Shown in pieces: positions 13,752 through 51,307 of a stretch of 64,000 bases of DNA. The first letter of the stretch is position 1; each line of letters starts with the position of its first letter. Below the pieces are notes generated by a model. That model worked only from the letters and a program-made list of their open reading frames with translations. It was not told the origin of the DNA and ran no database searches. The stretch comes from Candidatus Latescibacterota bacterium (GTDB taxonomy: Bacteria > Latescibacterota > UBA2968 > UBA8231): the NCBI GenBank assembly GCA_036343635.1, contig JAYYVF010000066.1:89931-153930 (forward strand). Direction: 5' to 3'. The translations under genes and the position numbers were made by a program.

Positions 13752-13754
13752 ATT

Positions 13755-29273: not shown

Positions 29274-32200
29274 ATGAACATTCTCCGCAATTATTTTTTA
29301 ATATATTTAGTTGTAAGTTTAAGTCCTGCAGTGAGTTGGAGCCAGTCCGCTTCGGTGTCTCCCAGTGGTCTGTCTAGGATACCCTTTGGGGCTACTGTTG
29401 ACAATCCGTTTTGGCAGCGTCTGAAGATCGAATTAAACGAGCACCCTTCTGCGGGAGACACGATAATTGTTCGATTACCTAGTGAAATTGGGATAGCCGA
29501 TACAGACCGCGATGGAGAGTTAGTAGATGAAGTGAATGTAGAAGATTCATCTGGTATTGGTACTGGCTATCGGGTAGTCCAAAATGTTAGTAGTCGAAGA
29601 ATCGTTTTGAAAAGCACCTATGGGGGATTGAAGGGAACAATTTATGTTCATTTTCCCATTGTGAGCCCATCAAATACTAACTCTTCTCAACTGGCATATG
29701 GGCAGATTTCCTTTTCCAACAGTAGGGAACAACCCATTTCAGCGGGCATGCTAATGCTAAACATTGTCCAGCCACGGGATCTAAATGTAGTTCAATTAAA
29801 TTCAGTTTTCGATCGAGCACTGGCTGATACAACAACTAATCCGCAGGGAGATATTTTCCCCACTAATTATTCAGAGGATGAGGGGATCCGGTTCCCGGAT
29901 TTTGTGCAAGACGAAAGTGGTTATGTAGGGAGATATGGTCTTGTTTCTGGGAATACGAATCCCGACGGGAACAATAGCAATGATACTAAATTTTTTGTAT
30001 GGATATCGACGAATGGAAATCTAGATCGTGTCTATGGGGATGTGGCCACGCCTGCTATAAGTAGCGACACCGGAGAATCTATCGGAGCAATAGAGGGCGA
30101 TTTGATGGAATTCAAATTAAAAATTGAAGATTTAGAAGAATTAGTCTATTACGTCTATATCACTTCGAATTTAACGGGTGACTTTCCATTGGCAAGGAGC
30201 AGAGGCATTCGAATTCGGCATGATCCTGTTATTTCATGGGTTGGGGAATTTTTAAGTGATGATAGTGACTATTTGGATTCAGGTAATTTACTTGATTTAG
30301 ATACGGGGGAGCCCGGTGCCCAGTGGAAGTCTCGCAATTCTATGCAAGTTAATTTTAAAGCGATTGATTACAACGACACCGCAACTGTAAAACTTTATTA
30401 CGCAACAGCTGACACTCTTGAAAAGGATTTTTTAATAATTAGTGGTTCGAGTCCCAACTTAGTTGTTGAGGGATTGAAGGAAGCAGAGCCGATAGACTCT
30501 ACAAAAATACTTCTAGAAGGTAGGGATACCGGCCAGTATTGGAATATTGCGATATCGGATTCTATTTACGTCCCTACCGGTGATTACTACATCTATGGTG
30601 TGATAAATGATGGAAAAACGCAAGCAGTTCAGAGATCCAAGCACAGCTTCCGTGTGCGACATTCTCCCTTTATAGCCTTAGACGTACGAAAAGATCGATT
30701 TATCCACACTGGAGGGAGTCTTGGTGAACGGTATTATACTATCACTTGGAATGGAGATCGTGGCCATGAGGGAGATAGAGCAATTGGGGATAGTGCAAAA
30801 ATCTCATTGTATTATAGCAGTCGATTTGATTATTCCATCCCTGATGGAGCAGAAGATATCGCCTCTGCTGCTGCGGATTCTTCAAAAGATACACACTTGA
30901 TTATTGATGGACTCGAAGAAAAAGACGATCGACGTATTGACAATCAATATGAATGGGACATTTGGACTTATCATAATCCTGACGATGGGGGAGTGCCTCG
31001 TGAAGGAGTTGATTATGGAATATATGCCATAGTTGAAACCGACTCTATGCGACGTTTGGTTCGATGGAATGATGAGTCAGATCAGCCACAGGTTCTTCAG
31101 TTTAGTCACGAGCCATTTCTTCGAGTTGTGGAACCTGCTAATACTTTTGAATTCAATGGTCGGCACGGATTTGATGTTGCCTGGGAAGCAATCGATGTGG
31201 ATGATGAAGCGAGCATTTGGGTGATATTGACTTCGGCGTCTGCTGCAGAAATATTGGGAGATTCAACGAGTTACAGTGCTTTGCGGTCGGATGGAATCTC
31301 TGATTGGTTAGCTAATTCGGAAGATGGTTGTAGCTCTACGACACAGTTATTGACCGAAAGTTCTCAACAGAGATTCAGTGTACGTCCTGCCACACTCGTT
31401 AAAACTATGTCGTGCGTGCAAACGTCGATTACAGATGGAGATTATTATGTATATGTCGTGGTAGATGCGACGTTGGAAAGTCAGCCAAATGACGAAGCTT
31501 TGGCTCGTCGTGCCCCGGGTAGGGTAAAGATTACAGGGTTGGGACCGGCTGGTGCCGTTGGATTACCAAGATTAAATCTAGAGTTTTTACCCGCTACTGT
31601 GAATACCGGATCGTCGGGTGATACCGTTACAGTACAAATTTATCCTAATACGGGAGGGGAAGAGGTCGATTTGATTACGATTTTTGCTAGTGTAGACACC
31701 TCCTTAGTTCGATTAGTAGATCAGGTTTCTGGACAGGAAGGCGTCCAACCGTTTCAATTATCAAGTGAAGCTACTGGGATGGTACTGAGGGATACATTAC
31801 TCTCGGGTCAGGATAGTCTGTATGCGGGACAATATCTTCTAGACCTTGTTTATTATGAACAAATGGGAACCAAAAGGTATGATGGAAGGCGGTCCCTTGC
31901 TTCTATTCAATTTGTTACACGGGATACCGTTGGGTCTACTAACGTTTGGTTTAACCATTTAGGGACACGAAAGACGGCATTCTATCGAGATGGTAAGACA
32001 TTAGCAGACATAGCTTCGCATGATGCTATGAAAATAAATGTCCAAAGTCGGGGAAGTATTGATGGGAAAATCCCATTGCAAGGGCGCAAAGATTTTAGTG
32101 GGATAACAACGTTTTATCTAAGAGACCGAAACAGTTTTGAACCTATCAGTGACGCTCGATTTATTGCGGCAAATGATATCGATTCAACGTTGTTGGGAAT

Positions 32201-33296
32201 ACAGGATTCATTGTCCTTTGACGGAAGATTTTCTCTGGTAGATATCCCGAGAGGCGAGTATCAATTAGTTGTGAGGAGACCTGGCTACTTAGATGGACAA
32301 ATCCCATCGGTTCTTATAGATAATGGAAAAACTGTTTCTGATCTTCAACCTACTTTTCAAATGGATGGTAGATCTAATCCGGGTTACTTGCTTGGCGGCG
32401 ATGTCACTGGCTATGTGAATAAGGAAGGTAAATCTATCTCTGACAATGAAATAGACCAACTCGATATTGATTATGTTGTGGCGTATTTTGGTCAGACAGT
32501 AGAGGTAGGTGGAGATGCTACTTTCGCAGATATTGACGGAGATAGCCTTGTATGGATTGCCGATTTGAACATGGTCGCAGCAAATTTTAATTCGCAAGGT
32601 GTGGCACCCGTATTTAAGGCGTCTACTAAGACTTCTGAAAATCCTTCTACTATGAAGATTCTTTCCTCTGAATCGAATGGGCGCCTTCGAATTGAAGCTG
32701 TCTTAGAAGGTGTTTCGGGTATGCGGGCTTATGTCGTCCGAGTTAACTACGATTCAGAAACGTGGAGATGGATAGGTGCCGAAGATTTTTCATTTTCAGG
32801 TCGTCAAGCTGTGTTTGCAGAATATTTCTCTGAGGATGAGGTTGCTTGGGCGTCGGCATTGGTTGGATTTGGTGACGGAGTAAATAATAATTCTACGCTA
32901 GCGAGTTTCGAGTTCGAACGAGTTGGGGATGAGGACGTGCCAGTTCTTATTGCGGAGATGGAGTGGATGGATGTTTTGGGTGGCCGTCACAGAGCAAAAT
33001 TTAGTTCCTCCTCGCAAAAAGAGGTGGTTTTACTTCCTAATGTCCCCAATCCTTTTAACCCATATACGCAAGTAAGCTTCAATTTGCCATACGAAGGAAG
33101 GATAGATGTTGGTGTTTACGACGTACTAGGTCGCAGAGTTCGTTCATTAGTTGGGGGGCTCTCGAAACCAGGTTTGCACACGGTCATTTGGAATGGTAGG
33201 GATAATTCGGGTCGGGATGTGGCATCAGGCACATATTTTTTACGTTTGCGTTTCGATGATAGAATCTCGATTCGCAAGATGCTGTTACTTCGCTGA
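29274..33296 (+). CDS. Giant T9SS cargo 'A1': four ~145-aa unknown modules + cohesin-like + CarboxypepD_reg-like + dockerin-like + second cohesin-like + T9SS CTD
   Basis: Signal peptide 'LVVSLSPAVSWSQ'. Module ends at 'YYVYITSN..RSRGIRIRHDP', 'GDYYIYGVIND..RSKHSFRVRHSP', 'DYGIYAIVETD..FSHEP' and 'GDYYVYVVVDA'. 'GGDVTGYVNKEG...ADIDGDSLVWIADLNMVAANF' is the dockerin-like part. The CTD is listed separately. Paralog of 37341..41324. Confidence 0.8.
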   Translation: MNILRNYFLIYLVVSLSPAVSWSQSASVSPSGLSRIPFGATVDNPFWQRLKIELNEHPSAGDTIIVRLPSEIGIADTDRDGELVDEVNVEDSSGIGTGYRVVQNVSSRRIVLKSTYGGLKGTIYVHFPIVSPSNTNSSQLAYGQISFSNSREQPISAGMLMLNIVQPRDLNVVQLNSVFDRALADTTTNPQGDIFPTNYSEDEGIRFPDFVQDESGYVGRYGLVSGNTNPDGNNSNDTKFFVWISTNGNLDRVYGDVATPAISSDTGESIGAIEGDLMEFKLKIEDLEELVYYVYITSNLTGDFPLARSRGIRIRHDPVISWVGEFLSDDSDYLDSGNLLDLDTGEPGAQWKSRNSMQVNFKAIDYNDTATVKLYYATADTLEKDFLIISGSSPNLVVEGLKEAEPIDSTKILLEGRDTGQYWNIAISDSIYVPTGDYYIYGVINDGKTQAVQRSKHSFRVRHSPFIALDVRKDRFIHTGGSLGERYYTITWNGDRGHEGDRAIGDSAKISLYYSSRFDYSIPDGAEDIASAAADSSKDTHLIIDGLEEKDDRRIDNQYEWDIWTYHNPDDGGVPREGVDYGIYAIVETDSMRRLVRWNDESDQPQVLQFSHEPFLRVVEPANTFEFNGRHGFDVAWEAIDVDDEASIWVILTSASAAEILGDSTSYSALRSDGISDWLANSEDGCSSTTQLLTESSQQRFSVRPATLVKTMSCVQTSITDGDYYVYVVVDATLESQPNDEALARRAPGRVKITGLGPAGAVGLPRLNLEFLPATVNTGSSGDTVTVQIYPNTGGEEVDLITIFASVDTSLVRLVDQVSGQEGVQPFQLSSEATGMVLRDTLLSGQDSLYAGQYLLDLVYYEQMGTKRYDGRRSLASIQFVTRDTVGSTNVWFNHLGTRKTAFYRDGKTLADIASHDAMKINVQSRGSIDGKIPLQGRKDFSGITTFYLRDRNSFEPISDARFIAANDIDSTLLGIQDSLSFDGRFSLVDIPRGEYQLVVRRPGYLDGQIPSVLIDNGKTVSDLQPTFQMDGRSNPGYLLGGDVTGYVNKEGKSISDNEIDQLDIDYVVAYFGQTVEVGGDATFADIDGDSLVWIADLNMVAANFNSQGVAPVFKASTKTSENPSTMKILSSESNGRLRIEAVLEGVSGMRAYVVRVNYDSETWRWIGAEDFSFSGRQAVFAEYFSEDEVAWASALVGFGDGVNNNSTLASFEFERVGDEDVPVLIAEMEWMDVLGGRHRAKFSSSSQKEVVLLPNVPNPFNPYTQVSFNLPYEGRIDVGVYDVLGRRVRSLVGGLSKPGLHTVIWNGRDNSGRDVASGTYFLRLRFDDRISIRKMLLLR
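32394..32600 (+). other. Dockerin-like module in A1 (approximate coordinates)
   Basis: 'GGDVTGYVNKEGKSISDNEIDQLDIDYVVAYFG...ADIDGDSLVWIADLNMVAANFNSQG'. The second loop is canonical and the first carries an insertion. Confidence 0.5.
33030..33293 (+). other. T9SS type-A C-terminal sorting domain (Por_Secre_tail / FlgD-Ig-like) of A1
   Basis: 'LLPNVPNPFNPYTQVSFNLP...VYDVLGRRVRSL...VIWNGRDNSGRDVASGTYFLRL...MLLLR'. Confidence 0.85.
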
Positions 33297-33305
33297 GCTT
33301 TTATC

Positions 33306-36300
33306 ATGGGCGGATTAATATTCGCGTTGATAGTTTTTGCTAGTGAGCTTGTAGCAGATAATGCTTTTCTTTCTCTCAAAACTCCAGCGCCTCAAATAGT
33401 CAGTTTAGGAGATACGCTGTTGGTCGATATTCGAATTGACCCAAGATCTTCTTCAATGACTTCTGCCAGTGTCTACCTCCGATACGATTCTGACTTATTG
33501 AAAATTATTTCAGAGGAATTTGACGCCAATTCTGAATTAATACCTTTTCATAGTGGAAGTTTCTGGGAAGCGAATGTTTATCAAAATTCAATGGATAATG
33601 AGCGGGGGGAACTCAATTACGTGGTGGTTACTGGTCGTGATAACAATGGCTCTCGAATTGTTAGCTCGGTTACAGGCAGTTTGGCTCAAGTACGTTTCAA
33701 AGTAAGAAAAGTTCCAGAATTAGATAGGCGAGCTAAGGTTGAAATCCAAATGGCAGGTCGTAGGCAATCATCCTATACCTTACTAACTCAGCCAGGTGTT
33801 CAACATTTTTTTGATTTCAATAGAATCGGATTAGAATGGATTATTGCTCCGATTCCTTCAGGATTGGACCTTCCTAATACCAAAGATGTAAACGAGGCTC
33901 TTACGAGTAATTTCTCGGTACCTAATCGTGGGCTTTTGTCTTTATTAGAGGATTCTTCACCTGAGGTTTATAATTGGCTAGATCTAATCGGTGTTGAAGA
34001 ATCTATGGCCTTGAATTATGTGGGAACGAGTCGTGGATTGGCTGTGGAAATAGTTGGAGACAGTCTGTATTTAAGAAGCGCTCCCGATTATTTCGGAACA
34101 GGAGTTTTGGAGCTTAATGTCTGCGATGTTTACCATGAATGTGATTCGGTTGAATGGGAAGTTGAGATTGAAGGTCTCAACGATCCTCCGGAATTTGTGA
34201 AATTAATACCTATCGATTTGGTTCAAGGTGAGTCTCTACGTTGGTCCATAGATGATATAGTGTATGATGTGGATAACAGGACAAATGATCTGGAAATTAA
34301 TTGTGAATCAGAGAAGTCTATTCTAGCAACCTGTGGCTTAGGTGAAGTGGAAATACAGGGGATACTTCCTGGAAAGGGGCTTGTAGTTCTAAGTGCTACT
34401 GATCCAAGCGGAGCGACCACTATATTTCCATTGCAAGTAACGGTGAATCCAACGAAATCAGCATCTCCAAATGTTAGAAATGTTTTTAACGGTTATAGAT
34501 CCCTTGGTGAGGTGGGCCAAGTGGATTTACGCGAATATGTTTCTGATCATGATTCGCCTTGGGAATCAATCGTGTTACATCTTGATTCATCAGGTTTAAT
34601 GTGGGAATGGCACGAATCTTCAACTTCCATTGTGGAATTGGGATTTTTTGAAGAAGGTGAGGTTACGTTGTCATTGCGTGTCGAGGATTCAGACGGTAAT
34701 ACTGCTGAAGGCCTATTGTCCTGGTTTGTTGAAAAAAAACATACGTTTTCTCCTGAACAAGTCCCTGAAGATTTAAATTCTTCATTATCACGGAAAGATG
34801 AATTTAACAATTGGGGTCTAAATGTCCCTTCTGTACCAAATCTGCTTCCGGGGAATTCTATATTGATTCCTTTGCACACCTTTATCGAGGGAATTGTTGC
34901 TAATGAATTGGAGTGGAATATTGGAAGGCAAGAAACTATCAGAGCCAAGGTTTATCAGGGATTTGTTGAAATAAGTGCACCCTTGGGTGCGAAAGGTTTT
35001 GGTTGGTTTGAACTATCTGCTTTAGACGAAAAAGGGCATAGCGAAAACATTCGCGTAGAAATTTATTTAATGTCAGAATCTCCCGAACGAAGAATGTCAA
35101 CGACCGAGGTAACCAAGCAGGCTGATTCATTGTTGTCTGTTGATATTCCTGATGTAAGCCTTTCGTACGGAGAATCACTTTTCATCCCTTTAGGCCAGTA
35201 TGCAAATCCCTCGGTAGAATGGTCATATATGGGAGGCGAAGGTCTAAATGTTGTCTTGATTGATAGCGGGGCAACAATTACTTCCTCCGATTCAGTCACA
35301 TCTCAAAGTATCCTTCTTTTTACTGCGACTGATTTGTTTGGAAATGAGATCACGGATGTAGTCCGCGTTGATTTATTTAGTCGTGATTTAATCAAAATTA
35401 CGGACGAATATGAAATAGAAGAAAATGTAGAAAGGGTGGTAATTGAAAAATCAAGTGAAATTTTCATTGAAGGCTTAGAGGATATTACAGTAGATGTTGG
35501 TGAATTTAGAATTAGCGAATCATTGGATCAATTAATAGACGCTAAGGATATTACGAATATGTCGTGGAGTGTTCGCGGAGGGGTGTATGTAAAAATCACG
35601 ATTGATGATAATAGACGGCTTGTTATAAATGCGCAAAATGCTTTTGTGGGTCGTGAATTCTTTGTAGTAAGTGGCGGAAGTGGTAACGCCTCATTTGAAA
35701 TACCTCTTACGATCAATATCAATGAATCTATAGTACGCCTAGACAAAAAAACTGAATATGTAAATGCCTCAAATGATGGTTTCGCATTAAATAATTTACT
35801 TATAGGTGAAGGTGAGGTAGAAGAATGGGCAGTTCGATCTTCGGAAGCCAATGTTGTAGTTGAAAATGGGTTTTTGTACGTCTCTGGGAACCCTGGACTT
35901 TACAGTATAGAAGTAGAAGCACAATTAGTTGATGGTAGATGGATTAAAGGCGGTTTTGTCAATGTTGAAATTGGAAGCAATTATGATAGAAAAAATCTGG
36001 AAGAAAATGTCGATAATAGATATTTCCCGCCGAGCTTTGATATGCCCCCAGAGTTTGAAATAGTTGCAGGAGATTCGGCGCAGTGGATAGTCGTTGTAGA
36101 AGATAAAGATTCGTCTCCGGATCAGTTAATCCTTTCATTGAAAGGGAAACGAGGTGGTTTTTCTCTACAAGGCCGCCATCTTTTTTTTGATGGTTCTTCA
36201 GTACCTGACACTCTATATCTTTTTGTGGAAGACGAGTCTGGGATGACTGATGAAATAGCCGTGAAAATACGGGTGCGTAATATTGAAATAACGCCTCTTA

Positions 36301-37103
36301 GAGTTTCTGTTACGGGTGATTTGCAGCCTGACAATACTATAGCATGGAAATTAGAAACCAATAAACGGTTGGCCCAGATTGAAATTTTAGTTGATCAACA
36401 AAAAATAGAGATACGTGAGCTTGAAGAATCTACGTTTTTTTGGAATCCGATAGGTGTCTCTCGAGCAAAGATTGATTTTGTTGTTCGCGATTTTGATGGA
36501 GAAATAGTTGAATTAAGCCATCATGTTTCAATGGGCCGGATCGGTTTAGGCCGTGGTATATACAGCGCGGATGGGAATTTTAGAATTGAAGGAGAATGGC
36601 GTGATTCATTTGCTCTCGTTTATCAGGATAGCATGGGATACCGCATCTCTTTGCGTGAAGGAATGGCACATGTTTTTATGCACGTCGACAGTAGTTTGTA
36701 TGGTTTAGCTTACTACAACTCAGACTCATGGCAGGGGTTACCAACAGAATATGGGTCAGGTCAATTAAGGGCTATTATTCCAAGATCTGGATGGGTTCGT
36801 GTAGATTCTCGTGGGGCTCCTACCTCTGTTGAATCCGCCTTAAAAGTTTATCCAAATCCGTTCAATAGTACCGTTGCGATAAAACTGGAAATGAGCAAAT
36901 CTGATTTTATAGAAACTGCAGTTTTTGATGTTTTAGGGAGACGAATACGTGACTTTGAGAAGGCCTGGCGAGAAGTTGGTCCGTCCATTCTTCAATGGGA
37001 TGGAAAGGATAATGAAGGGAGGAACGTGAGTAGTGGTATCTATTTTTTTCGTGTACGATCTGGCACTGTACTCGCTTCGGCCCAGATGATGCTCTTACGG
37101 TAG
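33306..37103 (+). CDS. Giant T9SS cargo 'B1': N-terminal cohesin-like module + tandem cadherin-like ~95-aa repeats + T9SS CTD
   Basis: The N-terminal 'LVDIRIDPRSSSMTSASVYLRYDSDLLKI...GSLAQVRFKVRK' is cohesin-like. Repeats carry 'DL..Y..D.D....L.W' cores and an 'NDPPEF' boundary. Starts 9 nt after the A1 stop. Paralog of 41321..45412. Confidence 0.8.
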   Translation: MGGLIFALIVFASELVADNAFLSLKTPAPQIVSLGDTLLVDIRIDPRSSSMTSASVYLRYDSDLLKIISEEFDANSELIPFHSGSFWEANVYQNSMDNERGELNYVVVTGRDNNGSRIVSSVTGSLAQVRFKVRKVPELDRRAKVEIQMAGRRQSSYTLLTQPGVQHFFDFNRIGLEWIIAPIPSGLDLPNTKDVNEALTSNFSVPNRGLLSLLEDSSPEVYNWLDLIGVEESMALNYVGTSRGLAVEIVGDSLYLRSAPDYFGTGVLELNVCDVYHECDSVEWEVEIEGLNDPPEFVKLIPIDLVQGESLRWSIDDIVYDVDNRTNDLEINCESEKSILATCGLGEVEIQGILPGKGLVVLSATDPSGATTIFPLQVTVNPTKSASPNVRNVFNGYRSLGEVGQVDLREYVSDHDSPWESIVLHLDSSGLMWEWHESSTSIVELGFFEEGEVTLSLRVEDSDGNTAEGLLSWFVEKKHTFSPEQVPEDLNSSLSRKDEFNNWGLNVPSVPNLLPGNSILIPLHTFIEGIVANELEWNIGRQETIRAKVYQGFVEISAPLGAKGFGWFELSALDEKGHSENIRVEIYLMSESPERRMSTTEVTKQADSLLSVDIPDVSLSYGESLFIPLGQYANPSVEWSYMGGEGLNVVLIDSGATITSSDSVTSQSILLFTATDLFGNEITDVVRVDLFSRDLIKITDEYEIEENVERVVIEKSSEIFIEGLEDITVDVGEFRISESLDQLIDAKDITNMSWSVRGGVYVKITIDDNRRLVINAQNAFVGREFFVVSGGSGNASFEIPLTININESIVRLDKKTEYVNASNDGFALNNLLIGEGEVEEWAVRSSEANVVVENGFLYVSGNPGLYSIEVEAQLVDGRWIKGGFVNVEIGSNYDRKNLEENVDNRYFPPSFDMPPEFEIVAGDSAQWIVVVEDKDSSPDQLILSLKGKRGGFSLQGRHLFFDGSSVPDTLYLFVEDESGMTDEIAVKIRVRNIEITPLRVSVTGDLQPDNTIAWKLETNKRLAQIEILVDQQKIEIRELEESTFFWNPIGVSRAKIDFVVRDFDGEIVELSHHVSMGRIGLGRGIYSADGNFRIEGEWRDSFALVYQDSMGYRISLREGMAHVFMHVDSSLYGLAYYNSDSWQGLPTEYGSGQLRAIIPRSGWVRVDSRGAPTSVESALKVYPNPFNSTVAIKLEMSKSDFIETAVFDVLGRRIRDFEKAWREVGPSILQWDGKDNEGRNVSSGIYFFRVRSGTVLASAQMMLLR
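36840..37100 (+). other. T9SS type-A C-terminal sorting domain of B1
   Basis: 'LKVYPNPFNSTVAIKL...VFDVLGRRIRDF...LQWDGKDNEGRNVSSGIYFFRV...MMLLR'. Confidence 0.85.
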
Positions 37104-37340
37104 TACGGGTATTTAAAGGAAAGTCTGATTAGTTGGAACATTGTTTGCTCTTATGAACCATGGGATTTTTATCTGGCTATGTAGAGATTTTATACAGCAG
37201 AATCGTATAATGCGGTAAATGCCATATATAATAAGAGTTTATGGTCATTTAACTCTTTGTGATGTCCGGTGAGAGGTATATGTGAAACGGAAAGATCTTC
37301 TTTACTTTGCGGAACATAATCTGCAAATGAAAGCTACGTC

Positions 37341-40300
37341 ATGAAAAAATTACTGTTTGCTGGATTTGTTGCTGTTTGGCTGGGAGAGCCCAAAGCAAAC
37401 GCGCAAAACATTAGTATCGTGCCCGATCAGCTTTCTACCATACCCATTGGGGGACTGCTACCCCAATCGTATTGGCAGCAGTTATTAGTTTCGTTGTCAA
37501 CGACTCATCCAGCCTCAGATAAATCGATGACCATATTTTTGCCTGACGGTCTTAAAATACTTGATAGTGACAATGACGGTCAGTTTAGAGATGAGGTTCG
37601 AGTTTCTTATGAACCAATTGGTTTTGATGATCCGAGTATCTTTGTCAGCGATCAAACGGCTTCGGGTTCGATTGTTATAGGATCTTTGGGTAATATTGCA
37701 GAAAATTCTGAGATCTATATACAATTCCCAGTTTACGCTGGCTTAAATACCCCTATTGGTGTCGCTTCTTACGGCGAAGTATTATTCGCCAATGAAGAGG
37801 AACCTGGTGTTGCCAAAGGTCCTGAAGTTCGCTTTGTAGATGAATCTAATTGGAGTCAACTCGGTGCTAAAGCTATAGTGCAATTTTCGAATCTTTATGC
37901 TGCTGGTGCAGATACTGTAATATTATTTGATGGTAACCTTTTTCCTAAGGAACCCAAACCACTTGTTGAATTTCTTCCGGATCTTGTTGTAGATCGTGGC
38001 GTTACCTCTATCAGCAATATTTTAGACATAGGTGACAAAAATGATGATAACGATCTGGTGTATAGTTTCTTTTGGTCAAAAGCATCAGATATAGTTCATA
38101 TAGATACCTTGAGTTTAGAGCCTGTATTAACCAGTACTGGCGTTCGTTACTCTACCTCAGAAAGACACGCTGCGAGCATTCAATTAGATTTAGGTGGTTT
38201 AGCTGAAGGAAATTATTTTCTCTACGCTATTTGTAATATGACAGAGGATTTGGTTCTTGGCCGTAGTCGAAAAATCCAGATTCTTCGTCCTCCGAAAATT
38301 AATTCTGTGGGACCCATTGATGACGTTACCCTTGATTCTGGGGGGTTGTATAATGTCAACGGTGTGCCTGACGGTAAAGGTCCGAGAAGGGTTAAGATAG
38401 ACTTTGAGGTAAATGATGCAGATGATCCCCCAGAAGTCTATCTTTTTGCTAGTCAAGATTCTACGCTTACTGTGGCGGCAAACTCCTTTAATGCCGAAGG
38501 TCTGCCTGAGTTGGCAGATGCTGAATTACTAAATAAAGCCGGACCAATCAGTATAACAGATAGCTTCTTTTGGAAATTTTCAGGAAATGATTTCGTTGCC
38601 GAGGGTGTGTATTATGTTTATGCGCTTGTTTCTGATGCGAGCAGTATTGTACTGGGAAGAAGTAAGGGGCGCATCCAAGTTATTCATTCTCCTTATTTAC
38701 GTTTTGATACTCCAACTGACGGTCGTGGTGGAAAGGTGGATACCATCTTCACGGGGGGAGTTAATCCCCAGCGTTATCTGACTTTTACTTGGGGAAAAAA
38801 GGGATTTAATGGAGATTTTGATTTAGACGATAATGCTCTAATTGATCTTTATTATAGCAGTGAGCCAGCAGGGAAAGCCTCGGGTTTTGAATTACCCGGC
38901 ACCGATGGATTGTTCACTGCCTTGTTGAAAGATAAAGCATGGGTGATAGCCGGAGGGATAGAAGAAGATGGAGATTCGCGGGAAGACAACCAATATGTTT
39001 GGGATTTGTGGTCGTTGGATGGTGAAGAAAGTTCATCTTTGATAGGTGGTCAGCCCTACTATTTTTACGGGCTGATTAGCGATGGGAAGCATCGTAGATT
39101 GGTTCAAATAAATGGTGGTCAAGAAAATGATCAGGGTTCTAAAATTATTTTTGATCATCCGCCAGCGCTAACGCCATTGCAGCCAGTCGATGAGATAACA
39201 GTTGGTCCTGGGGATCTCGGAAGAATTGCATGGGATGCTATAGACATAGATGATGATGCACAGATTCGTGTTTTATTGGTTAGCTCCGAGTTTGGTTCAG
39301 TAGCGAAATACCGCGAACTGATTGAAAATGTCGTATATGTGGTAAATTCTTCTGACGGATATAGTGAATCTAAAACTAATGCGATTTACGACCTAAGTGA
39401 AGACGATTCCAGTGATTATATCGATTTTTCCATAGACCATTTGGTACGTGGGATAAATAGCGATGCGCCACCTGGGCAAGGCACCTATAATGTGTATATC
39501 GCGATAACCGATGAATCTGAATTTACTGAGGCATGGTGTTGGCAAGCGCCCGGTCTAATTACGATAGAAAATGAAAGTGTAGAAAAAATTATTGATTTAC
39601 CGATTTCGCTCTGGCCTGAACAATTTACTATGGGAAACCAGGGTATGTCTCAGACTTTCGAACTTCGTATCACGGCAGAGCAATCTGTTGATCTGATTAA
39701 AACGAGTATTCTTTTTGATAATATTGCGTTTTCTCCAATAGATCAGGATCCTGAATTAGAGGGAGTGCAACCCTTTTATCTATCGCCAAATTTTTCATCA
39801 GCAAAGATGTTAAAAAACAGCGTTAGTTCATTAGAAGACGGCTCGGGGCAGTCTATACTTACTTTGGACTATTTAGAGCCAGCTGCGGGAGGTATATCCG
39901 GACTGAAGGAGGGTGCTGTACTGGCTTATTTTGAAATGAAGACGTTGCTTTATTCTGGTCTAACGAGCTTAGAATTAAAAGTAGGAGAGAAAGATCAGCC
40001 ATTTTCTCTCCTAGAATTGGACGGAGAAGAAATAGGAAATCTATCCGATGGAGTGTTATCGCAGGGGTCTTTAATTTCAGGCAGAGCTACGTTAAGTGGA
40101 TCCATACAGTTAGAAGGCCGCGTGGACATGCAGACAGAAGCAACAGCACAAATTCGTAGTAATGGTTCTTATCTTCCTATCTCCGACTCAACCTTTTCGA
40201 TTACAAACGATATAAATCCAAATCGCATTGGAATTCAGACGGTGATAGAAACAAGCGGTAAATTTGAATTGGTTAACGTTCCAGCAGGTCTTTGGGATCT

Positions 40301-41324
40301 ATACCTCGTAATAGATGGATATTTGCCAGGTGTTTCTCGTTCTCTATCTGCTAACGCTGGTCAGGTTATATCAGGATTGCATCCCGTTAGCGATCCCTAT
40401 GAGGGCTCTGGTTTTGTTCGTGGAGGAGACGTAGTAGGTTACGTCGATGAAAATGGTGAACTGCTGGCTGACAACGAAATAACTTTAGCTGATTGGGATT
40501 ATGTAGCTAGCTATTTTGGTTTAAACGTCGCCGATGGTGATAGTATCCGAAAAGCTGATATAACAGCGGATGGAAAGATTGACATTGTCGATTTGTCTAT
40601 TGTTGGTTCTAATTTTTCTAAACGTGGTCTGGATCCCGTATACAAAACTATTGTCGACGTACCCTCATTTAGCTTTGAATATGAGACAGAAAGAGAATCC
40701 GTTAGTGTTGGAGATTTCTATGTCGTTCCTATTACAAAGTTAGGACCAGAATTGTTGGTAGGTTATCAGTTCGAATTTAAATGGTCCGATACGGATTGGG
40801 ATTGGGTTTCTGTCACAAGCTCTGATGGCGACTTAGGAATGAGCGTCCAACGTAAAACATCATATGGAACTTTGTGGGGATTCTCCAGCTTAGGCGGGAA
40901 ACCTATCCCTGCCAAATTAGAATGGAAGTTGAAGGCACGTGTTAATGATCCCGAATTGCCGGTCGTTAGTAACGTGCTCGTTGTTGATGATGGAATGAAC
41001 GCTATCAAAGCTTTGGTTAATGGCAATACAGTTGACTTAAAGCCTGCAGATTTTCGATTGAATCTTAATTATCCGAACCCATTCAACCCTTCCACTCACA
41101 TCCCTTTTAGTGTTGATATTGATGGTCCAATATCACTTGTCGTCTATGATGTCCTCGGAAGACCCGTCAAAGAAATTTATAATGGTTGGATTGAATCGGG
41201 CTGGTATAAAATGAGTTGGGACGGCTTAAATGCAGATGATCGGGAAGTAGCAAGCGGTGTATATCTTTGCCGTCTAAAGAGTAATAATGAAGTCGAGACT
41301 ATCAGCATGGTTTTATTACGATGA
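37341..41324 (+). CDS. Giant T9SS cargo 'A2', paralog of A1 with the same module order
   Basis: Collinear with A1: 'IPIGGLLPQSYWQQLLVSL' vs 'IPFGATVDNPFWQRLKIEL'; 'GVYYVYALVSD..RSKGRIQVIHSP' vs 'GDYYIYGVIND..RSKHSFRVRHSP'; 'EDNQYVWDLWS' vs 'IDNQYEWDIWT'; 'IAWDAIDIDDDAQIRVLLVS' vs 'VAWEAIDVDDEASIWVILTS'. Confidence 0.8.
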   Translation: MKKLLFAGFVAVWLGEPKANAQNISIVPDQLSTIPIGGLLPQSYWQQLLVSLSTTHPASDKSMTIFLPDGLKILDSDNDGQFRDEVRVSYEPIGFDDPSIFVSDQTASGSIVIGSLGNIAENSEIYIQFPVYAGLNTPIGVASYGEVLFANEEEPGVAKGPEVRFVDESNWSQLGAKAIVQFSNLYAAGADTVILFDGNLFPKEPKPLVEFLPDLVVDRGVTSISNILDIGDKNDDNDLVYSFFWSKASDIVHIDTLSLEPVLTSTGVRYSTSERHAASIQLDLGGLAEGNYFLYAICNMTEDLVLGRSRKIQILRPPKINSVGPIDDVTLDSGGLYNVNGVPDGKGPRRVKIDFEVNDADDPPEVYLFASQDSTLTVAANSFNAEGLPELADAELLNKAGPISITDSFFWKFSGNDFVAEGVYYVYALVSDASSIVLGRSKGRIQVIHSPYLRFDTPTDGRGGKVDTIFTGGVNPQRYLTFTWGKKGFNGDFDLDDNALIDLYYSSEPAGKASGFELPGTDGLFTALLKDKAWVIAGGIEEDGDSREDNQYVWDLWSLDGEESSSLIGGQPYYFYGLISDGKHRRLVQINGGQENDQGSKIIFDHPPALTPLQPVDEITVGPGDLGRIAWDAIDIDDDAQIRVLLVSSEFGSVAKYRELIENVVYVVNSSDGYSESKTNAIYDLSEDDSSDYIDFSIDHLVRGINSDAPPGQGTYNVYIAITDESEFTEAWCWQAPGLITIENESVEKIIDLPISLWPEQFTMGNQGMSQTFELRITAEQSVDLIKTSILFDNIAFSPIDQDPELEGVQPFYLSPNFSSAKMLKNSVSSLEDGSGQSILTLDYLEPAAGGISGLKEGAVLAYFEMKTLLYSGLTSLELKVGEKDQPFSLLELDGEEIGNLSDGVLSQGSLISGRATLSGSIQLEGRVDMQTEATAQIRSNGSYLPISDSTFSITNDINPNRIGIQTVIETSGKFELVNVPAGLWDLYLVIDGYLPGVSRSLSANAGQVISGLHPVSDPYEGSGFVRGGDVVGYVDENGELLADNEITLADWDYVASYFGLNVADGDSIRKADITADGKIDIVDLSIVGSNFSKRGLDPVYKTIVDVPSFSFEYETERESVSVGDFYVVPITKLGPELLVGYQFEFKWSDTDWDWVSVTSSDGDLGMSVQRKTSYGTLWGFSSLGGKPIPAKLEWKLKARVNDPELPVVSNVLVVDDGMNAIKALVNGNTVDLKPADFRLNLNYPNPFNPSTHIPFSVDIDGPISLVVYDVLGRPVKEIYNGWIESGWYKMSWDGLNADDREVASGVYLCRLKSNNEVETISMVLLR
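40422..40628 (+). other. Dockerin-like module in A2 (approximate coordinates)
   Basis: 'GGDVVGYVDENGELLADNEITLADWDYVASYFG...ADITADGKIDIVDLSIVGSNFSKRG'. Confidence 0.55.
41058..41321 (+). other. T9SS type-A C-terminal sorting domain of A2
   Basis: 'LNLNYPNPFNPSTHIPFSV...VYDVLGRPVKEI...MSWDGLNADDREVASGVYLCRL...MVLLR'. Confidence 0.85.
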
Positions 41325-44300
41325 ACAATATGTTAAGAAAACTAAAATCGTTATTCTTCGGGTTGTTACTTATCTCATCCTCACCGTCAATGGCAGCGAA
41401 GATAGAAATAAGTAGTCCAATGTTGATTGAAACGAATCGCGTTGAGTTGGGACAAACAGTACCCGTGGAGATTGTGATCGACACCGAAGGTGAGATTATC
41501 AATGGTTATAGTATTTATTTGTCCTACGATCCAAACGTGTTGTCCGTAGATCCTGTTTCGGGGTCAGATGGAAAGGGAATGCCTTTTTTAAGTGGAGATT
41601 TTTTAGATGGAATAATGCTTCAAAATTCGGCAGAAAACAAAGATGAAAAGGTCCTTTTGAGTTATGTAGAAGCTGTTGGTGGTGCGCCAAGACAAGGGGT
41701 AAAAGGGAAGGGAGTAGTTGCGCATATTAATTTCAAGGTTTTGCGTAGGATTAGTGGCGATACGACGTCTATAGTTGTAGAAGAGGCACCTGGAGACTAT
41801 ATAACACATTACGTTTATGACGGGGCTCCTGGCCGCGAAATATACTTTAATACTCCTATTGAATCCGTAACGATACATGTCACGGGTTTTCGTATGGATC
41901 CATTGCCTGACATCGATCTGATAGAGGGAAAATCAGAAATGGTATTCGATTTAGATCAGTACGTCGATACGTTGTTGACAGACGTTTTCTGGACGCATTC
42001 TCGCTTGAGTGAAATATCAACATTTATTAATGAGCAAACTAATCAAGTTACGATGAGGCCCGACAAAGAATTTGTTGGAAGAAGACGGATGATATTTACC
42101 GCCTATGAATTAAATGAAGGTATCTCTGTATCAGATACCATATCACTAAATGTGCGTTCAGCACCTGTGATAAAAAGTTTGCCAGCAAAGGTAGGTTTCC
42201 TTGAGGATGGTGAGGATAAGTCAATTGATCTAGATAGTAAAGTAACTGATTTAGATGACGATTTAGAAGATTTAATTTGGGAGGCAAAGAGTGGGGATGG
42301 TTTGAACGTGAAGATTGACCCCATTTCAAAGATTGTCACCTTTACTACTAAGCCTGATTATTTCGGAAATAATTTTGTTGATTTTTTTGTTACTGATAGC
42401 GATGGATTAACCGATTCGCTTAGGGTACCCGTAGAAGTGATTCCCGTAAATGATCCGCCGGAAGCTTTTGCTCCAAGCCCAATTTATCCAGTTGTCAATG
42501 GGCCACCCATAACAATTCCCTTAGAAGATTTTTTCACAGACGTTGATGACTCTATTGAGTCGCTTCAAGTATTTTTTGAATTGCAAGATGGTGTTAGAGC
42601 CGAATTGTCAGATAACGATGTTTTAATCTATGGGACAAAAGTTGGCCGAAGTATTGTCACAATAAGCGCTCAGGATCTTTCCGGACTTAGTATTAAGACG
42701 AGGCAAATTGTAATTGTCTTAGAAGAAGGACAGTCTATCGGGCCTGAATTAGATCAATTTTCACTCATGCGAATCCCAATGGGTGGTCAGCAGCAACTAA
42801 TTTTGACTGACAAAGTTACTGACGATCAATCACAAGAAGAAATAATCTGGACGATAGAGCCTGATAGTGGCTTTGTTGCGAACATAATCGACGGTGTACT
42901 GTATGTTGCTGCTGAGCCAGGTTTTAAAGGAATGGGCGAGGTTGGAGTTACGGCGACTGACCGTCAGGGGAATTTTGACCGCGAGGTTATAACGGTTTAT
43001 ATGCAACAGGGCGAAGATGGCTTGGGGCCGATTCTCACGGTTAATGGTAAAGTGGGATTGAGGTCAGGCGAAATTGCAAGTTTTCTGGTGGATGACTGGG
43101 TGGAGGACCCTGATCACCAAGATTCTCAATTGAATTGGAATTTTATCTCTACCTCGGGTGTTATTTCGCAGTACGATGTATTTGAGAGAGAGTTGTTTGT
43201 TAGAGCTGAGGAGTCACTTGTTGAACCTGCTGCTATAACTTTACGGGTAAATGATCCTGATGGAAATTTTGATGAGGTTACGTTGCCTGTATTGTTTGCT
43301 CGAAGTGGTGAGCCTCCTAAATTAGCCCCTTTGCCTGAAGTCAATCTGGAAAGTAGTGGCGACGAGGCAAAAGTAGATCTAGATGACTTTGCCTATGATG
43401 ATACCGATCGTGAAAGCGAATTAATCTGGGAAATTGAATCTGATCCGGGAATTGACGTTTCCTATAATCCTATTAGTCACGATTTATCAATTCGACGGGA
43501 AGACTCTGACGGATTAGAGGGGGCACCGTTATCTGCTCAAGTCATTGTTAAAACACAGGATACGAGTGGTTTAGAAAAAGCGGGGCGTATCGATGTCGGT
43601 TTACCACCAGTTTTTGAATTGTTTCCCTTTCCTGCCGTGGAACTGTATTCAGGAAGCGCTGATTCGTCTCTTTTATTAACTGAATATGTACTGGCACCCG
43701 AAGGTCGACCTTCTCCGGTTTTAGTTTGGAGTATTGATTCAACAAATGAAATTGTAGCCGAAATTGATTCGAGTTCTAACAGACTTTATTTGCGAGTCGG
43801 TTTGGAAAGTTTTACAGGAAGTCAGAGCCTTGAATTAAAGGCTCTGGATCGCACAGGCCGGATTCGTACCTCGGACCTTCGCGTTGTTGTTAATGGGTTA
43901 GGTCTGTCTCCTCAATTACGTTCCTTTCCGAGATTAGAAATACTGCAAGGCAACATCGACTCATCTGTTGATTTAGATGATTATGTTGTAGACGATAACC
44001 CAGATTCCAAATTACAATGGAGTGTTAGTGGTCACGAGGATCTTCCGGTTTCAATTGACCCTGATACTCGGATTTTAACGGTTGACGCCACGGAGACTCA
44101 GGTCTCAATTGAGGTCCTTCATTTTATCGTTCGTGACCCAGCTGGAAACGTAGATGTTGGCTCTATGGAAGTGGGGATTCTTCGTGGAGGCAATCCGCCG
44201 ACGATAGGCCAGTTGCCACAAGTTATTTTAAAGGAAGGTGGACGCGAACAGCAGATCGATCTGAAGCCTTATATTGTTGACGAGGATACGCCAGTTGAAA

Positions 44301-45412
44301 ATATGAAGGTGGATGTGGAAGCGGAAGCTGGTGTTGCTGCTCGTATTTCCGATGGGCAACTAATTTTATCTGTGCCTGGAGGACAAAGAGGAAACCGCAC
44401 ATTAAAGATTACAGCTACGGATCCGCAGGGTAATGTAGATGTTGCAGAGCTTAAAGTATTAATTGATCAAGATGAGGAAGTACCAGAGCTAAGTCTCGAT
44501 ATAGTTCGTCATCCAATATTTTCCGAAGAACTTGGCATATCAATTAGTGCCGATGAAGCTTTGATGAGCCCACCGTTAGTTACTGTTGGTCAGGATAGTC
44601 TTTCTGTAAAAGATGTTGGACCGAATACTTACAAAACAGCTTTTATACATCCAGGTGAACCTAAACAGAGTATTGTATATATAGAGGTTAAAGCTCAAGA
44701 TTTGGCGGGTAATGTAGGTATAAAACGACAGGAAGTAAGTTTGTCCTGGATGGATGATAAAGGCGGCAATATTCGAAGCCCTGATCCGGAAGTTATGCTC
44801 AATGTACCTTCTTCTGCATCAAGGCCTGGGCAACTTGCTGTCGTTTACAAGTTGGATCCACAGAAAGTACCAGGGGGGAGTGAAGGAGAACCGGTTTACT
44901 CGATTGATTTGGAGAGAGGAAAAAAATTGAGGGCTCCAGTTACTGTGAATTTTCTGACTTCGTCTGAAAAAAACTCGGATTTAGGTCTATTGCGTTGGGA
45001 TGATGATAAAAAAGAATGGGTTGATTTACCGACAAGTATTGATCCACAGACAGGATGGCTCTCAACTACGGTTGAAGATCTTGGATTGTTCAGGAAGGGA
45101 GTTGTTTCACCGGATAATAGATTAGAAAATGATCCCTTGCGTGTTTATCCAAATCCATTTCGACCTGGAAAAACACAAGATGTACGAGTTGATTATCGAG
45201 TTAAATATCCGGGCGAAATTCGCTTATATATTTTTAACGCTCTGGGGACAAAGGTGCGAACTCTTACCGATGAATATCAGGAAGTAGGAGCTTGGAGCGT
45301 AGGATGGGATGGGTCGGATGATAAGGGTATGAGAGTAGCGAGTGGAGTTTATTATTTTGAATTGCAAAATTATAGCCGTCGTGAGAGGGCTGTGTTGGTG
45401 TTAATCCGTTGA
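41321..45412 (+). CDS. Giant T9SS cargo 'B2', paralog of B1: cohesin-like N-terminus + ~9 cadherin-like repeats + Ig-like region + T9SS CTD
   Basis: 'VPVEIVIDTEGEIINGYSIYLSYDPNVLSV...GVVAHINFKVLRR' is cohesin-like. About 9 repeats have cores such as 'IDLDSKVTDLDDDLEDLIWEA' and 'VDLDDYVVDDNPDSKLQWSV', with a 'VNDPPEA' boundary. ATGA overlap with the A2 stop. Confidence 0.8.
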   Translation: MNNMLRKLKSLFFGLLLISSSPSMAAKIEISSPMLIETNRVELGQTVPVEIVIDTEGEIINGYSIYLSYDPNVLSVDPVSGSDGKGMPFLSGDFLDGIMLQNSAENKDEKVLLSYVEAVGGAPRQGVKGKGVVAHINFKVLRRISGDTTSIVVEEAPGDYITHYVYDGAPGREIYFNTPIESVTIHVTGFRMDPLPDIDLIEGKSEMVFDLDQYVDTLLTDVFWTHSRLSEISTFINEQTNQVTMRPDKEFVGRRRMIFTAYELNEGISVSDTISLNVRSAPVIKSLPAKVGFLEDGEDKSIDLDSKVTDLDDDLEDLIWEAKSGDGLNVKIDPISKIVTFTTKPDYFGNNFVDFFVTDSDGLTDSLRVPVEVIPVNDPPEAFAPSPIYPVVNGPPITIPLEDFFTDVDDSIESLQVFFELQDGVRAELSDNDVLIYGTKVGRSIVTISAQDLSGLSIKTRQIVIVLEEGQSIGPELDQFSLMRIPMGGQQQLILTDKVTDDQSQEEIIWTIEPDSGFVANIIDGVLYVAAEPGFKGMGEVGVTATDRQGNFDREVITVYMQQGEDGLGPILTVNGKVGLRSGEIASFLVDDWVEDPDHQDSQLNWNFISTSGVISQYDVFERELFVRAEESLVEPAAITLRVNDPDGNFDEVTLPVLFARSGEPPKLAPLPEVNLESSGDEAKVDLDDFAYDDTDRESELIWEIESDPGIDVSYNPISHDLSIRREDSDGLEGAPLSAQVIVKTQDTSGLEKAGRIDVGLPPVFELFPFPAVELYSGSADSSLLLTEYVLAPEGRPSPVLVWSIDSTNEIVAEIDSSSNRLYLRVGLESFTGSQSLELKALDRTGRIRTSDLRVVVNGLGLSPQLRSFPRLEILQGNIDSSVDLDDYVVDDNPDSKLQWSVSGHEDLPVSIDPDTRILTVDATETQVSIEVLHFIVRDPAGNVDVGSMEVGILRGGNPPTIGQLPQVILKEGGREQQIDLKPYIVDEDTPVENMKVDVEAEAGVAARISDGQLILSVPGGQRGNRTLKITATDPQGNVDVAELKVLIDQDEEVPELSLDIVRHPIFSEELGISISADEALMSPPLVTVGQDSLSVKDVGPNTYKTAFIHPGEPKQSIVYIEVKAQDLAGNVGIKRQEVSLSWMDDKGGNIRSPDPEVMLNVPSSASRPGQLAVVYKLDPQKVPGGSEGEPVYSIDLERGKKLRAPVTVNFLTSSEKNSDLGLLRWDDDKKEWVDLPTSIDPQTGWLSTTVEDLGLFRKGVVSPDNRLENDPLRVYPNPFRPGKTQDVRVDYRVKYPGEIRLYIFNALGTKVRTLTDEYQEVGAWSVGWDGSDDKGMRVASGVYYFELQNYSRRERAVLVLIR
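45137..45409 (+). other. T9SS C-terminal sorting domain of B2 (slightly divergent)
   Basis: 'LRVYPNPFRPGKTQDVRV...IFNALGTKVRTL...VGWDGSDDKGMRVASGVYYFEL...LVLIR'. Confidence 0.8.
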
Positions 45413-50368: not shown

Positions 50369-51307
50369 ATGTTATTTTGTGCTAGTTGTTATCTCTTCAG
50401 AAGATTATACTTGATTGCGGCAATATGTTTCTTGAATTTCGACCTAGTGAATTCTCAAGACGTTGATTACCGGGAAATAACTTATGTCGATTCTTCTTCG
50501 CTAGGTTACAAAACATACTTTGCTAAAGATTCCGAAGTTTTTTCTGCTTCCACTTGGCGGGATCTTTTTTTGAAACAAGTAACAAGCGATACTGCCCAAG
50601 TTGCAAAAAGGTTGATCGTCCGATCTCCAGATTCTGTCTCGTTGCGGTCCATGCCGAAAGATATGCTCCAACTCCCAGTTGCAGAAAAAAAAGAATTATT
50701 TTTCTCTGTTATGGGCCGCATTGCTAAGTTCCATAATGATGTGATCGCTGTAAGGCGGGAGCGCTTGATTCGGCTGCTGCATTCAAGTAATGACGATGTT
50801 TTTCTCGAGAAAATGGTAACCGAATACTCACTTGAACGTGTTAATCTTAAAATGCCATCACGTAGAGATACTTTACTTGAACTTTTAACTAGAGTAGACT
50901 GTATACCTCCGTCTCTAATTTTGGCACAGGCAGCTATTGAATCTGGATGGGGGACCTCACGTTTTGCGCGAGAGGGAAACAATTTGTTTGGCCAACGAGT
51001 TTGGAGTGATAAAATTCCTGGAATGGAAGCAAGTGGGAGATCGGATGCTAAGTTTCGATTAGCTGTCTATACTAGCATTTCTGAAAGTGTAAAAGGCTAT
51101 TTGCGCAATTTGAATACGCATCCTTTTTATCAGTCTCTTCGCGTAATTCGGAAGCGCAAAAGAGATCAAGATCAAAGTGTTTTTGGCTTGGATCTCGTAG
51201 GCCAGTTAGGTTCTTATTCGATACGTGGTGAAGCATATATTTCCGATGTTACAAGAATGATTGAATTCAACAATCTTTCACAGTTAGATGAAAAAGCCTG
51301 TATATAA
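50369..51307 (+). CDS. Bax-like mannosyl-glycoprotein endo-beta-N-acetylglucosaminidase domain protein
   Basis: 'LILAQAAIESGWGTSRFAREGNNLFGQR' is the glucosaminidase (FlgJ/Bax-type) catalytic signature. N-terminal hydrophobic anchor. Confidence 0.75.
   Translation: MLFCASCYLFRRLYLIAAICFLNFDLVNSQDVDYREITYVDSSSLGYKTYFAKDSEVFSASTWRDLFLKQVTSDTAQVAKRLIVRSPDSVSLRSMPKDMLQLPVAEKKELFFSVMGRIAKFHNDVIAVRRERLIRLLHSSNDDVFLEKMVTEYSLERVNLKMPSRRDTLLELLTRVDCIPPSLILAQAAIESGWGTSRFAREGNNLFGQRVWSDKIPGMEASGRSDAKFRLAVYTSISESVKGYLRNLNTHPFYQSLRVIRKRKRDQDQSVFGLDLVGQLGSYSIRGEAYISDVTRMIEFNNLSQLDEKACI

Follow-up and report, generated by a model that had tools for sequence, protein, structure and literature searches.

The stretch analyzed here (hereafter the window) comprises 64,000 nucleotides (nt), positions 89,931 to 153,930 of contig JAYYVF010000066.1 from a Candidatus Latescibacterota bacterium, and it carries two adjacent, paralogous copies of a two-gene unit, A1-B1 and A2-B2, between two further large genes, U and C. 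A six-frame list of open reading frames (ORFs) gave A1 at 29274..33296 (1340 amino acids, aa), B1 at 33306..37103 (1265 aa), A2 at 37341..41324 (1327 aa) and B2 at 41321..45412 (1363 aa), all on the + strand, and their positions are those given by an earlier sequence-only reading of the window. A1 encodes a scaffoldin-like adaptor, A2 its paralog with identical module order (ORF list and BLASTP), and B1 and B2 encode paralogous stalk proteins. On the left, U (25014..29150, - strand) encodes a beta-propeller protein and is divergently transcribed relative to A1; on the right, C (45423..50351, + strand) encodes another beta-propeller protein and starts 10 nt past the B2 stop codon.

The junctions between these genes were read directly. 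The A1 stop codon TGA (33294-33296) is separated from the B1 ATG (33306) by 9 nt (33297..33305, + strand, gcttttatc), and the stop codon of A2 and the start codon of B2 are merged in an ATGA overlap at 41321..41324 on the + strand, so that both the gap and the overlap claimed in the sequence-only reading stand, with one caveat. An alternative in-frame ATG for B2 lies three codons on, at 41330, and was chosen as the start in a public annotation of the gene (P0068, 1360 aa); with this start, the overlap would become a 5-nt gap. A 4-nt A2/B2 overlap is also called in four related loci on other contigs (L001, L004, L005 and L092), the other loci having gaps of +1 to +8 nt, and the ATGA overlap probably marks the true start of B2. 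The A1-B1 junction measures 9 nt in L004 and L092, 11 nt in L091 and 14 nt in L005 and L089. The spacer between the two units, B1 to A2, is 237 nt long (37104..37340, + strand, read directly). It holds one of the region's two best sigma-70-like consensus matches (37182-37211), which is weak evidence; promoter-like sites were rarer in the consensus scan than in shuffled controls, and the promoter part of the scan is uninformative. The same promoter/terminator consensus scan found no terminator-like hairpin in this spacer.

A1 and A2 are related over their whole lengths, as BLASTP returned a single alignment of residues 8-1340 with residues 6-1327 (29% identity, E 2e-116). For B1 and B2, BLASTP returned only patches, which fall in the N-terminal domain (141 aa at 29% identity), in the repeats and in the C-terminal domain. 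Ortholog alignments of B1 and of B2 were then built and compared profile to profile with hhalign; the result was a single collinear alignment, 1133 columns long (positions 8-1214 with 9-1358, E 2.2e-79, 21% identity, score 676). Out-of-register alternative alignments scored no more than 220, and a repeat-only control, the B1 profile against U, scored 214 and was confined to the repeat region. The patchy BLASTP result for B1 and B2 is what would be expected if the apparent paralogy were an artefact of a shared C-terminal type IX secretion system (T9SS) sorting domain and of shared immunoglobulin-like (Ig) repeats, but the end-to-end alignment of A1 with A2 and the B1/B2 score of 676, against 220 out of register and 214 for U, rule this explanation out and leave it with a negligible chance. 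At the DNA level, no similarity was detected between the A1-B1 and A2-B2 units (best blastn E 0.65). Accordingly, the collinearity of A1 with A2 and of B1 with B2 and the lack of a DNA-level repeat, all claimed beforehand, were borne out, and in neither pair is the similarity limited to generic domains.

The A proteins consist of a putative signal peptide, an N-terminal array, a cohesin, an X-module, a dockerin, a second cohesin and a T9SS C-terminal domain (CTD), in this order. In A1, the array spans 29343-31553 on the + strand (aa ~24-760) and comprises an N-terminal domain and four homologous beta-sandwich repeats of ~140 aa each. The first ~750 residues of A were covered by neither Pfam nor NCBIfam models. 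An AlphaFold2 (AF2) model of A1 residues 24-1223, computed from 31 sequences, had a mean predicted local distance difference test score (pLDDT) of 82.9 and was nearly all beta, and self-alignment of the A-family profile with hhalign resolved the four ~140-aa units behind the N-terminal domain. A motif, R…V(R)H(S)P, recurs at the end of these units, and many Asp, Trp and His residues are invariant in the array. An exhaustive HMMER scan of 1.84 billion representatives with the array yielded only 106 clusters at E <= 1e-3, most of them 1300-1430-aa proteins bearing the array N-terminally. The array is thus a rare module confined to this lineage, and the ~730-aa region is a candidate new domain family.

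Behind the array, the X-module and dockerin of A1 occupy 32061..32597 (+ strand), with a CarboxypepD_reg-like Ig domain at aa ~930-1035 and the dockerin at aa ~1040-1108; the dockerin of A2, recognized by a clade-specific signature and a dockerin alignment, lies at 40419-40625 (+ strand, aa ~1027-1095). Positions 971-1097 of the A-family profile matched the X-dockerin chains 5g5d_B, 2b59_B, 4u3s_B, 3kcp_A, 4wi0_B and 5k39_B of the PDB (E 4e-5 to 7e-3), and the matched stretch in 2b59_B and 5g5d_B, residues 46-155, covers both the X-module and the dockerin. Pfam recognized CarboxypepD_reg in 19 of 29 family members and Dockerin_1 in 2 of 29, and in the A1 model three helices (aa ~1062-1103) come after beta-strands. 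Profile matches, Pfam and the model thus all place an Ig-like X-module directly N-terminal to the A dockerin. In a Foldseek search of the PDB, the A1 model matched the CohI9-X-DocII fragment of CipA (4fl4_C) with a target-normalized template modeling score (TM) of 0.45; the whole ~1200-aa model gave mostly generic multi-Ig matches, among which 4fl4 alone was informative.

Two cohesin-like modules flank this X-dockerin. The upstream one (31581..32048, + strand, aa ~770-925) aligned by hhalign with the cohesins of B2 (E 9e-10) and B1 (E 1e-8), the downstream one (32646..33023, + strand, aa ~1125-1250) aligned with the B2 cohesin (E 4e-7), and the negative controls were clean in both cases. At the downstream position, Pfam Cohesin scored above its cut-off in P0010, P0015, P0019 and the A-like protein of L087. 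Among the modules of A, conservation is lowest in the downstream cohesin-like one (mean ortholog identity 28%); in A1 (68%), A2 (61%) and C (60%), it is highest in the dockerin. The second dockerin repeat is canonical in both A1 and A2 (ADIDGDSLVWIADL / ADITADGKIDIVDL). Members of the A1 clade share the fixed dockerin signature DNEIDQLDxDFVV … ADIDGDSLVWIxDLNxVAANF, which differs from that of the A2 clade, DNEVTLADWDYVA … ADITGDGxVxIxDLSLVGANF.

The B proteins consist of a putative signal peptide, an N-terminal cohesin, about ten Ig-like repeats and a T9SS-type CTD, with one extra domain in B2. The B2 cohesin (41390-41875, + strand, aa ~24-185) scored 30.3 bits against Pfam Cohesin PF00963 (cut-off 24.1). 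An AF2 model of B2 residues 24-330 (pLDDT 82.5) had cohesins as its best PDB matches in Foldseek (1qzn, 3ghp, 6kgf, 1g1k and 2zf9; target-normalized TM 0.51-0.69), headed by 1qzn (type II, 24% identity), with type I and III cohesins nearly as high. The B1 N-terminus (aa ~18-175, + strand) stayed under the Pfam Cohesin cut-off (18.8 bits against 24.1, E 0.0019) but is homologous to the B2 cohesin, as the two profiles aligned with an E value of 5.5e-23 (hhalign). When PDB sequences were searched with profiles of B1 and B2, the only matches were PKD/cadherin and FlgD-like C-terminal domains and no cohesin came up, so the assignment of the B cohesins rests on Pfam, the structure model and Foldseek. 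In the stalk, B2 matched Big_9 PF17963 (33.3 bits, cut-off 23.6) and tand_rpt_95 NF012211 (E 8e-12), the B1 profile matched KIAA0319-like PKD domains (E 7e-10), and the repeat regions of both proteins aligned to the repeats of U. These data uphold the earlier description of A as a dockerin plus cohesin-like protein and of B as an N-terminal cohesin-like domain on a cadherin-like stalk.

U and C both carry dockerins with two canonical DxDxDG…D loops. U is a putatively secreted NHL beta-propeller protein with Big_9/tandem-95 repeats (Pfam and NCBIfam) and ends in a canonical two-repeat dockerin at aa ~1312-1372, delimited by alignment with C and with U orthologs. C combines BNR/Sortilin-like and FG-GAP beta-propellers with HYDIN-like Ig domains (Pfam), and its C-terminal module is that of A, namely cohesin, X, dockerin, cohesin and T9SS CTD; residues 715-1340 of A1 align to residues 1057-1642 of C (26% identity, E 3e-34). 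The dockerin of C scored 24.2 bits against Dockerin_1 PF00404 (cut-off 22.9). C also matched the 'F510_1955 family glycosylhydrolase' model at 130 bits, under the cut-off of 175.

Inspection of the translations revealed hydrophobic N-termini with plausible cleavage sites, and all members of the cluster are predicted to be exported by the Sec pathway. A T9SS sorting domain is present in five of the six large cluster proteins. TIGR04183 (cut-off 23) scored 25.7 in A1, 28.3 in A2, 36.0 in C and 23.3 in B1 (aa 1181-1265, + strand) but only 16.4 in B2, the C-terminus of which matched FlgD_ig (33.6, cut-off 27). No T9SS CTD was found in U, unlike in A1, B1, A2, B2 and C. Since the domain occurs in all of these proteins but U, the members that bear it are probably exported by type IX secretion and displayed on the outer membrane. 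U might be exported piggy-back or act in the periplasm.

To place the duplication in time, we examined related proteins and loci. Searching 5.8 billion clustered proteins with A1 recovered ~32 full-length relatives, which form two sets, one A1-like with 37-79% identity to A1 and one A2-like with 34-40% identity to A2. Neighbor-joining trees with 100 bootstraps were computed for A, with more distant A-like proteins included, and for B. In the A tree, the A1 clade (100/100), the A2 clade (100/100) and the sisterhood of A1 and A2 (99/100) were all recovered; in the B tree, the B1 and B2 clades were each supported by 100/100. A word-indexed homolog search with B1 found three close orthologs only, because B1 diverges fast, and the distant B1 orthologs came from the loci of A neighbors. 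A scan of contigs with A-family patterns returned unrelated T9SS cargo in 79 of 80 loci, because one of the two patterns was the T9SS C-terminal motif NYPNPFNP; the sole true ortholog, L006, is from Candidatus Latescibacterota. The same name is carried by homologs P0020 and P0092, and some of the metagenome-assembled genomes with homologs are labelled otherwise.

Gene order around the duplication is conserved. The order U(-)-A1-B1-A2-B2 is found in the window and on five more contigs (L004, L005, L089, L091 and L092), where the position and orientation of U are also kept. C follows B2 in the window, L089 and L091, and the contigs L004, L005 and L092 end inside B2. A2-B2-C is also present in L001, L002 and L090; L001 has no A1-clade pair directly upstream, and L090 begins within a B-like gene that precedes A2-B2-C. 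In L002 (1-9708), the A1-B1 position holds a far larger pair, an A-like (2451 aa) and a B-like (1922 aa) gene separated by 162 nt with a strong intrinsic-terminator-like hairpin. The 2451-aa protein branches outside A1+A2 and its B-like partner groups weakly with B1, and these larger genes may be highly diverged, expanded orthologs of A1 and B1. Compared with L002, L003 shows an apparent insertion that splits the gene of the larger B-like protein (B'), the end of its A-like neighbor (A') into the start of B' being identical in both; three small ORFs that gene calling places in the B' region of L003 had no Pfam matches. More distant pairs of an A-like gene followed by a B-like gene occur in L087 and, fragmented, in L086, and in the more distant pairs the two genes lie 162-562 nt apart. 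In L086, flagellar rod and ring genes flank the B-like gene. Within the A1 and A2 clades, the distance from A to B is -4 to +14 nt at all loci examined; where B1 and A2 are both called intact, the spacer between them measures 171-282 nt. This difference in spacing, together with the existence of the distant A-like/B-like pairs, agrees with the claim that A and B form a functional unit.

Synonymous sites are saturated between the paralogs, which share no DNA similarity, and the ratio of nonsynonymous to synonymous substitution rates (dN/dS) was therefore computed not between them but with the TARA Oceans scaffold L092, the closest relative, as reference. The values were 0.150 for A1, 0.309 for B1, 0.172 for A2, 0.161 for the N-terminal half of B2, 0.195 for U and 0.06 for housekeeping neighbors. 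Purifying selection acts on all of A1, B1, A2 and B2. Within the cluster, B1 evolves fastest, with 27-36% identity between genomes compared with 39-54% for the other cluster genes; its divergence is spread over the whole protein, which fits relaxed constraint or diversifying selection on an exposed stalk.

The sequence-only reading had also proposed an old duplication with both copies kept, and the well-supported clades (100/100, with A1+A2 at 99/100), at least six syntenic contigs and dN/dS values of 0.15-0.31 accord with it. Both pairs were retained from a time before the sampled lineages diverged. We consider it highly probable that the duplication is real and old and that the modules are assigned correctly. 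Less direct is whether the pair was duplicated as one block. B1 and B2 were not recovered as sisters in the B tree (17/100 only), and B1 grouped weakly with a clade of 1900-aa B' proteins, as might be seen if A and B had been duplicated separately and the A-B-A-B order had arisen by rearrangement. B1, however, is a long, fast branch, which makes the B topology unreliable and the low support for B1+B2 uninformative, and A1 and A2 are sisters at 99/100. All six contigs with both pairs share one gene order, and a block duplication needs fewer events. Separate duplication is thus very improbable, and a single block duplication of the A-B pair is the parsimonious reading, although it is not proven.

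The cluster encodes about eight cohesin-like modules and four dockerins, which could be wired as follows. A would be a scaffoldin-like adaptor and B an anchoring stalk with its cohesin at the distal N-terminal end; the X-dockerin of A would bind the cohesin of B in a calcium-dependent manner, and the spare cohesins of A would take up the beta-propeller proteins U and C by way of their dockerins. Because the cohesin-X-dockerin order in A and the terminal type II-like cohesin in B parallel clostridial anchoring, A-to-B docking is the most economical wiring. On balance, we think it reasonably likely that the duplicated pair, within the conserved cluster U(-)-A1-B1-A2-B2-C, specifies a T9SS-exported, cellulosome-like cohesin-dockerin surface scaffold with A docked to B, which would presumably serve surface adhesion or substrate capture. 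Taken as a claim of its own, docking of the A X-dockerin on the B cohesin is argued by analogy, and we advance it tentatively, at somewhat less than an even chance. It is more doubtful whether the two pairs would form non-interchangeable, orthogonal docking channels (A1 to B1 and A2 to B2); separate docking specificities are considered because the dockerin signatures of A1 and A2 differ by clade. These signatures and the faster evolution of B1 are the sole hints that suggest subfunctionalization.

Several observations weigh against this assembly. Its geometry is awkward, as the dockerin of A lies near its own membrane-proximal CTD and the cohesin of B tips a ~1000-aa stalk, so that docking of A and B on the same cell would need release of A or bending of the stalk. 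The A dockerins have an atypical first calcium loop, in which an insertion occurs and canonical Asp/Asn residues are missing, and the B1 cohesin is conserved at 38% compared with 68% for the A1 dockerin, which is not like a tightly co-constrained interface. As cohesins outnumber dockerins by ~8 to 4, many wirings are possible, and module-wise conservation did not discriminate between them. The B2-to-C gap, at 10 nt by direct reading, is as tight as the A-to-B junctions, so close spacing is a feature of the operon and not specific to A and B. Pfam and NCBIfam detected no glycoside hydrolase, polysaccharide lyase, carbohydrate esterase or peptidase catalytic domain on U, A1, A2 or C, and none of the T9SS components PorK/L/M/N, SprA and PorU/V was recognized within the 64-kb window, where no search was aimed at this machinery.

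Some of these points would equally suit a set of independent T9SS adhesins that share an operon, with modules that bind other partners, carbohydrates or nothing and with spacing that reflects operon compaction. Besides the short B2-to-C gap and the poorly conserved B1 cohesin, such an explanation could draw on the 162-562-nt gaps of the more distant pairs, on the terminator-like hairpin between A' and B' in L002, and on the widespread occurrence of partnerless non-cellulosomal cohesin-like modules (Peer et al. 2009, as cited in PMC8542988). It accounts less well for an A-then-B order that is kept across the A1, A2 and more distant clades, for dockerins being the most conserved modules in A and C, and for a cluster that supplies an X-dockerin and a type II-like cohesin, the classical anchoring pair; we regard it as unlikely. 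Less likely again is a different wiring, in which the dockerin of A binds a cohesin of itself, of another A or of C, forming head-to-tail chains, and the B cohesin captures U or C. Two cohesin-like modules do flank the dockerin of A, U has a dockerin without a T9SS CTD and would need a cohesin partner for surface retention, and the geometric argument against A-B docking applies here in favor of the alternative. Nothing direct decides between this wiring and docking of A on B, but the A1 and A2 dockerin signatures and the paired retention of B1 and B2 fit docking of A on B slightly better.

Genes elsewhere in the window were also annotated. A glucosaminidase-domain protein (50369-51307) is encoded 17 nt past C and is also found after C in L002 and L091, and a polysaccharide deacetylase gene (51308-52393) directly abuts it. 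Upstream of the cluster lie genes for a homolog of FapA (flagellar assembly protein A) and for a family X DNA polymerase with a PHP domain (17480-19636 and 20383-22101, both on the - strand). Farther upstream, positions 1811-16291 hold a Bat-type (aerotolerance-like) operon with a MoxR AAA ATPase, DUF58, BatA/BatB-like VWA proteins, TPR proteins and BatD, with which a GldA/GldF/GldG-like ABC set (ABC_tran, ABC-2 permease, ABC_transp_aux and DUF4340; 3752-10095) is interleaved.

What is understood of cohesin-dockerin assemblies comes almost entirely from Gram-positive cellulolytic Firmicutes, and elsewhere the modules are mostly scattered and partnerless. The present cluster differs in being compact, deeply conserved and syntenic, with both cohesin and dockerin partners present on presumed T9SS cargo. 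Its host lineage is uncultured, globally distributed and marine, and a close relative (L092) comes from a TARA Oceans sample. What sets the cluster apart is a deeply conserved duplicated two-gene unit together with an undescribed N-terminal module. In its most elaborate form, which we put forward as speculative, the system would be a two-tier, non-cellulosomal T9SS scaffold in which orthogonal A1-B1 and A2-B2 channels show different propellers (U and C) at the tips of ~40-nm stalks. If true, this would mean that clostridial-style anchoring by X-dockerin and type II cohesin was re-invented independently in a Gram-negative lineage, around a ~730-aa N-terminal module. With dockerins that differ in a clade-fixed manner, the duplicated pairs make a natural test case for the divergence of docking specificity after duplication and a possible source of orthogonal protein-protein connectors. 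Such practical value hinges on binding. The duplication alone is ordinary gene-family evolution.

In the clostridial anchoring system (Acetivibrio/Clostridium thermocellum), the primary scaffoldin CipA, which ends in CohI9-X-DocII, docks onto the type II cohesins of SdbA, OlpB and Orf2p (PDB 2b59 and 4fl4). Like CipA, A has a cohesin, then an X-module and then a dockerin near its C-terminus; like the clostridial anchoring scaffoldins, B has a single terminal cohesin, with a type II cohesin as its best fold match, and a surface anchoring device; and in both systems the scaffold and anchor genes are clustered. In contrast to the clostridia, the host here is a Gram-negative bacterium of the Fibrobacteres-Chlorobi-Bacteroidetes (FCB) group, and anchoring would proceed through a T9SS CTD, present on both A and B, instead of surface-layer homology (SLH) repeats. 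Moreover, A has two cohesin-like modules and the ~730-aa N-terminal array, compared with a family 3 carbohydrate-binding module (CBM3) and nine cohesins in CipA, and it differs further in its second cohesin after the dockerin and in its atypical first calcium loop. B has a long stalk of Ig repeats unlike the clostridial anchors, and the cluster, unlike the clostridial one, contains no dockerin-bearing glycoside hydrolases. Judged by the annotated domains, dockerin-borne catalytic subunits, by which a cellulosome is defined, are absent from the cluster, and the system should not be called a cellulosome.

A closer parallel is found in 'Ca. Stygibacter' of the Cloacimonadota, for which a cellulosome-like cohesin scaffold attached by a T9SS CTD was inferred from genomes (PMC8542988). 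Both systems come from the FCB group, are genome-inferred and combine a cohesin scaffold bearing a T9SS CTD with secreted dockerin proteins. The Stygibacter system has one 3755-aa scaffoldin with tandem cohesins and CBM2/CBM3, and its dockerins are on recognizable hydrolases and peptidases (PMC8542988); the present cluster, unlike it, has duplicated two-gene units with single or double cohesins, a scaffold that itself bears an X-dockerin, and propeller 'cargo' without assigned catalysis. Dockerins in Latescibacteria are noted in a passage of PMC7424252 that cites Youssef 2015 and Farag 2017. In the part of the literature that we covered, we found no published description of the A/B family or of a duplicated adaptor/stalk pair. 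B also resembles the tandem-95/Big_9/cadherin-like T9SS adhesins of the FCB group, as its stalk matches NF012211 tand_rpt_95 and Big_9, and tandem-95 repeat proteins of Fibrobacter are among the distant matches of B2 (P0094-P0110). It is distinguished from these adhesins by its length of ~1265-1390 aa, its N-terminal cohesin, a specific domain preceding the CTD and the A gene that it always adjoins.

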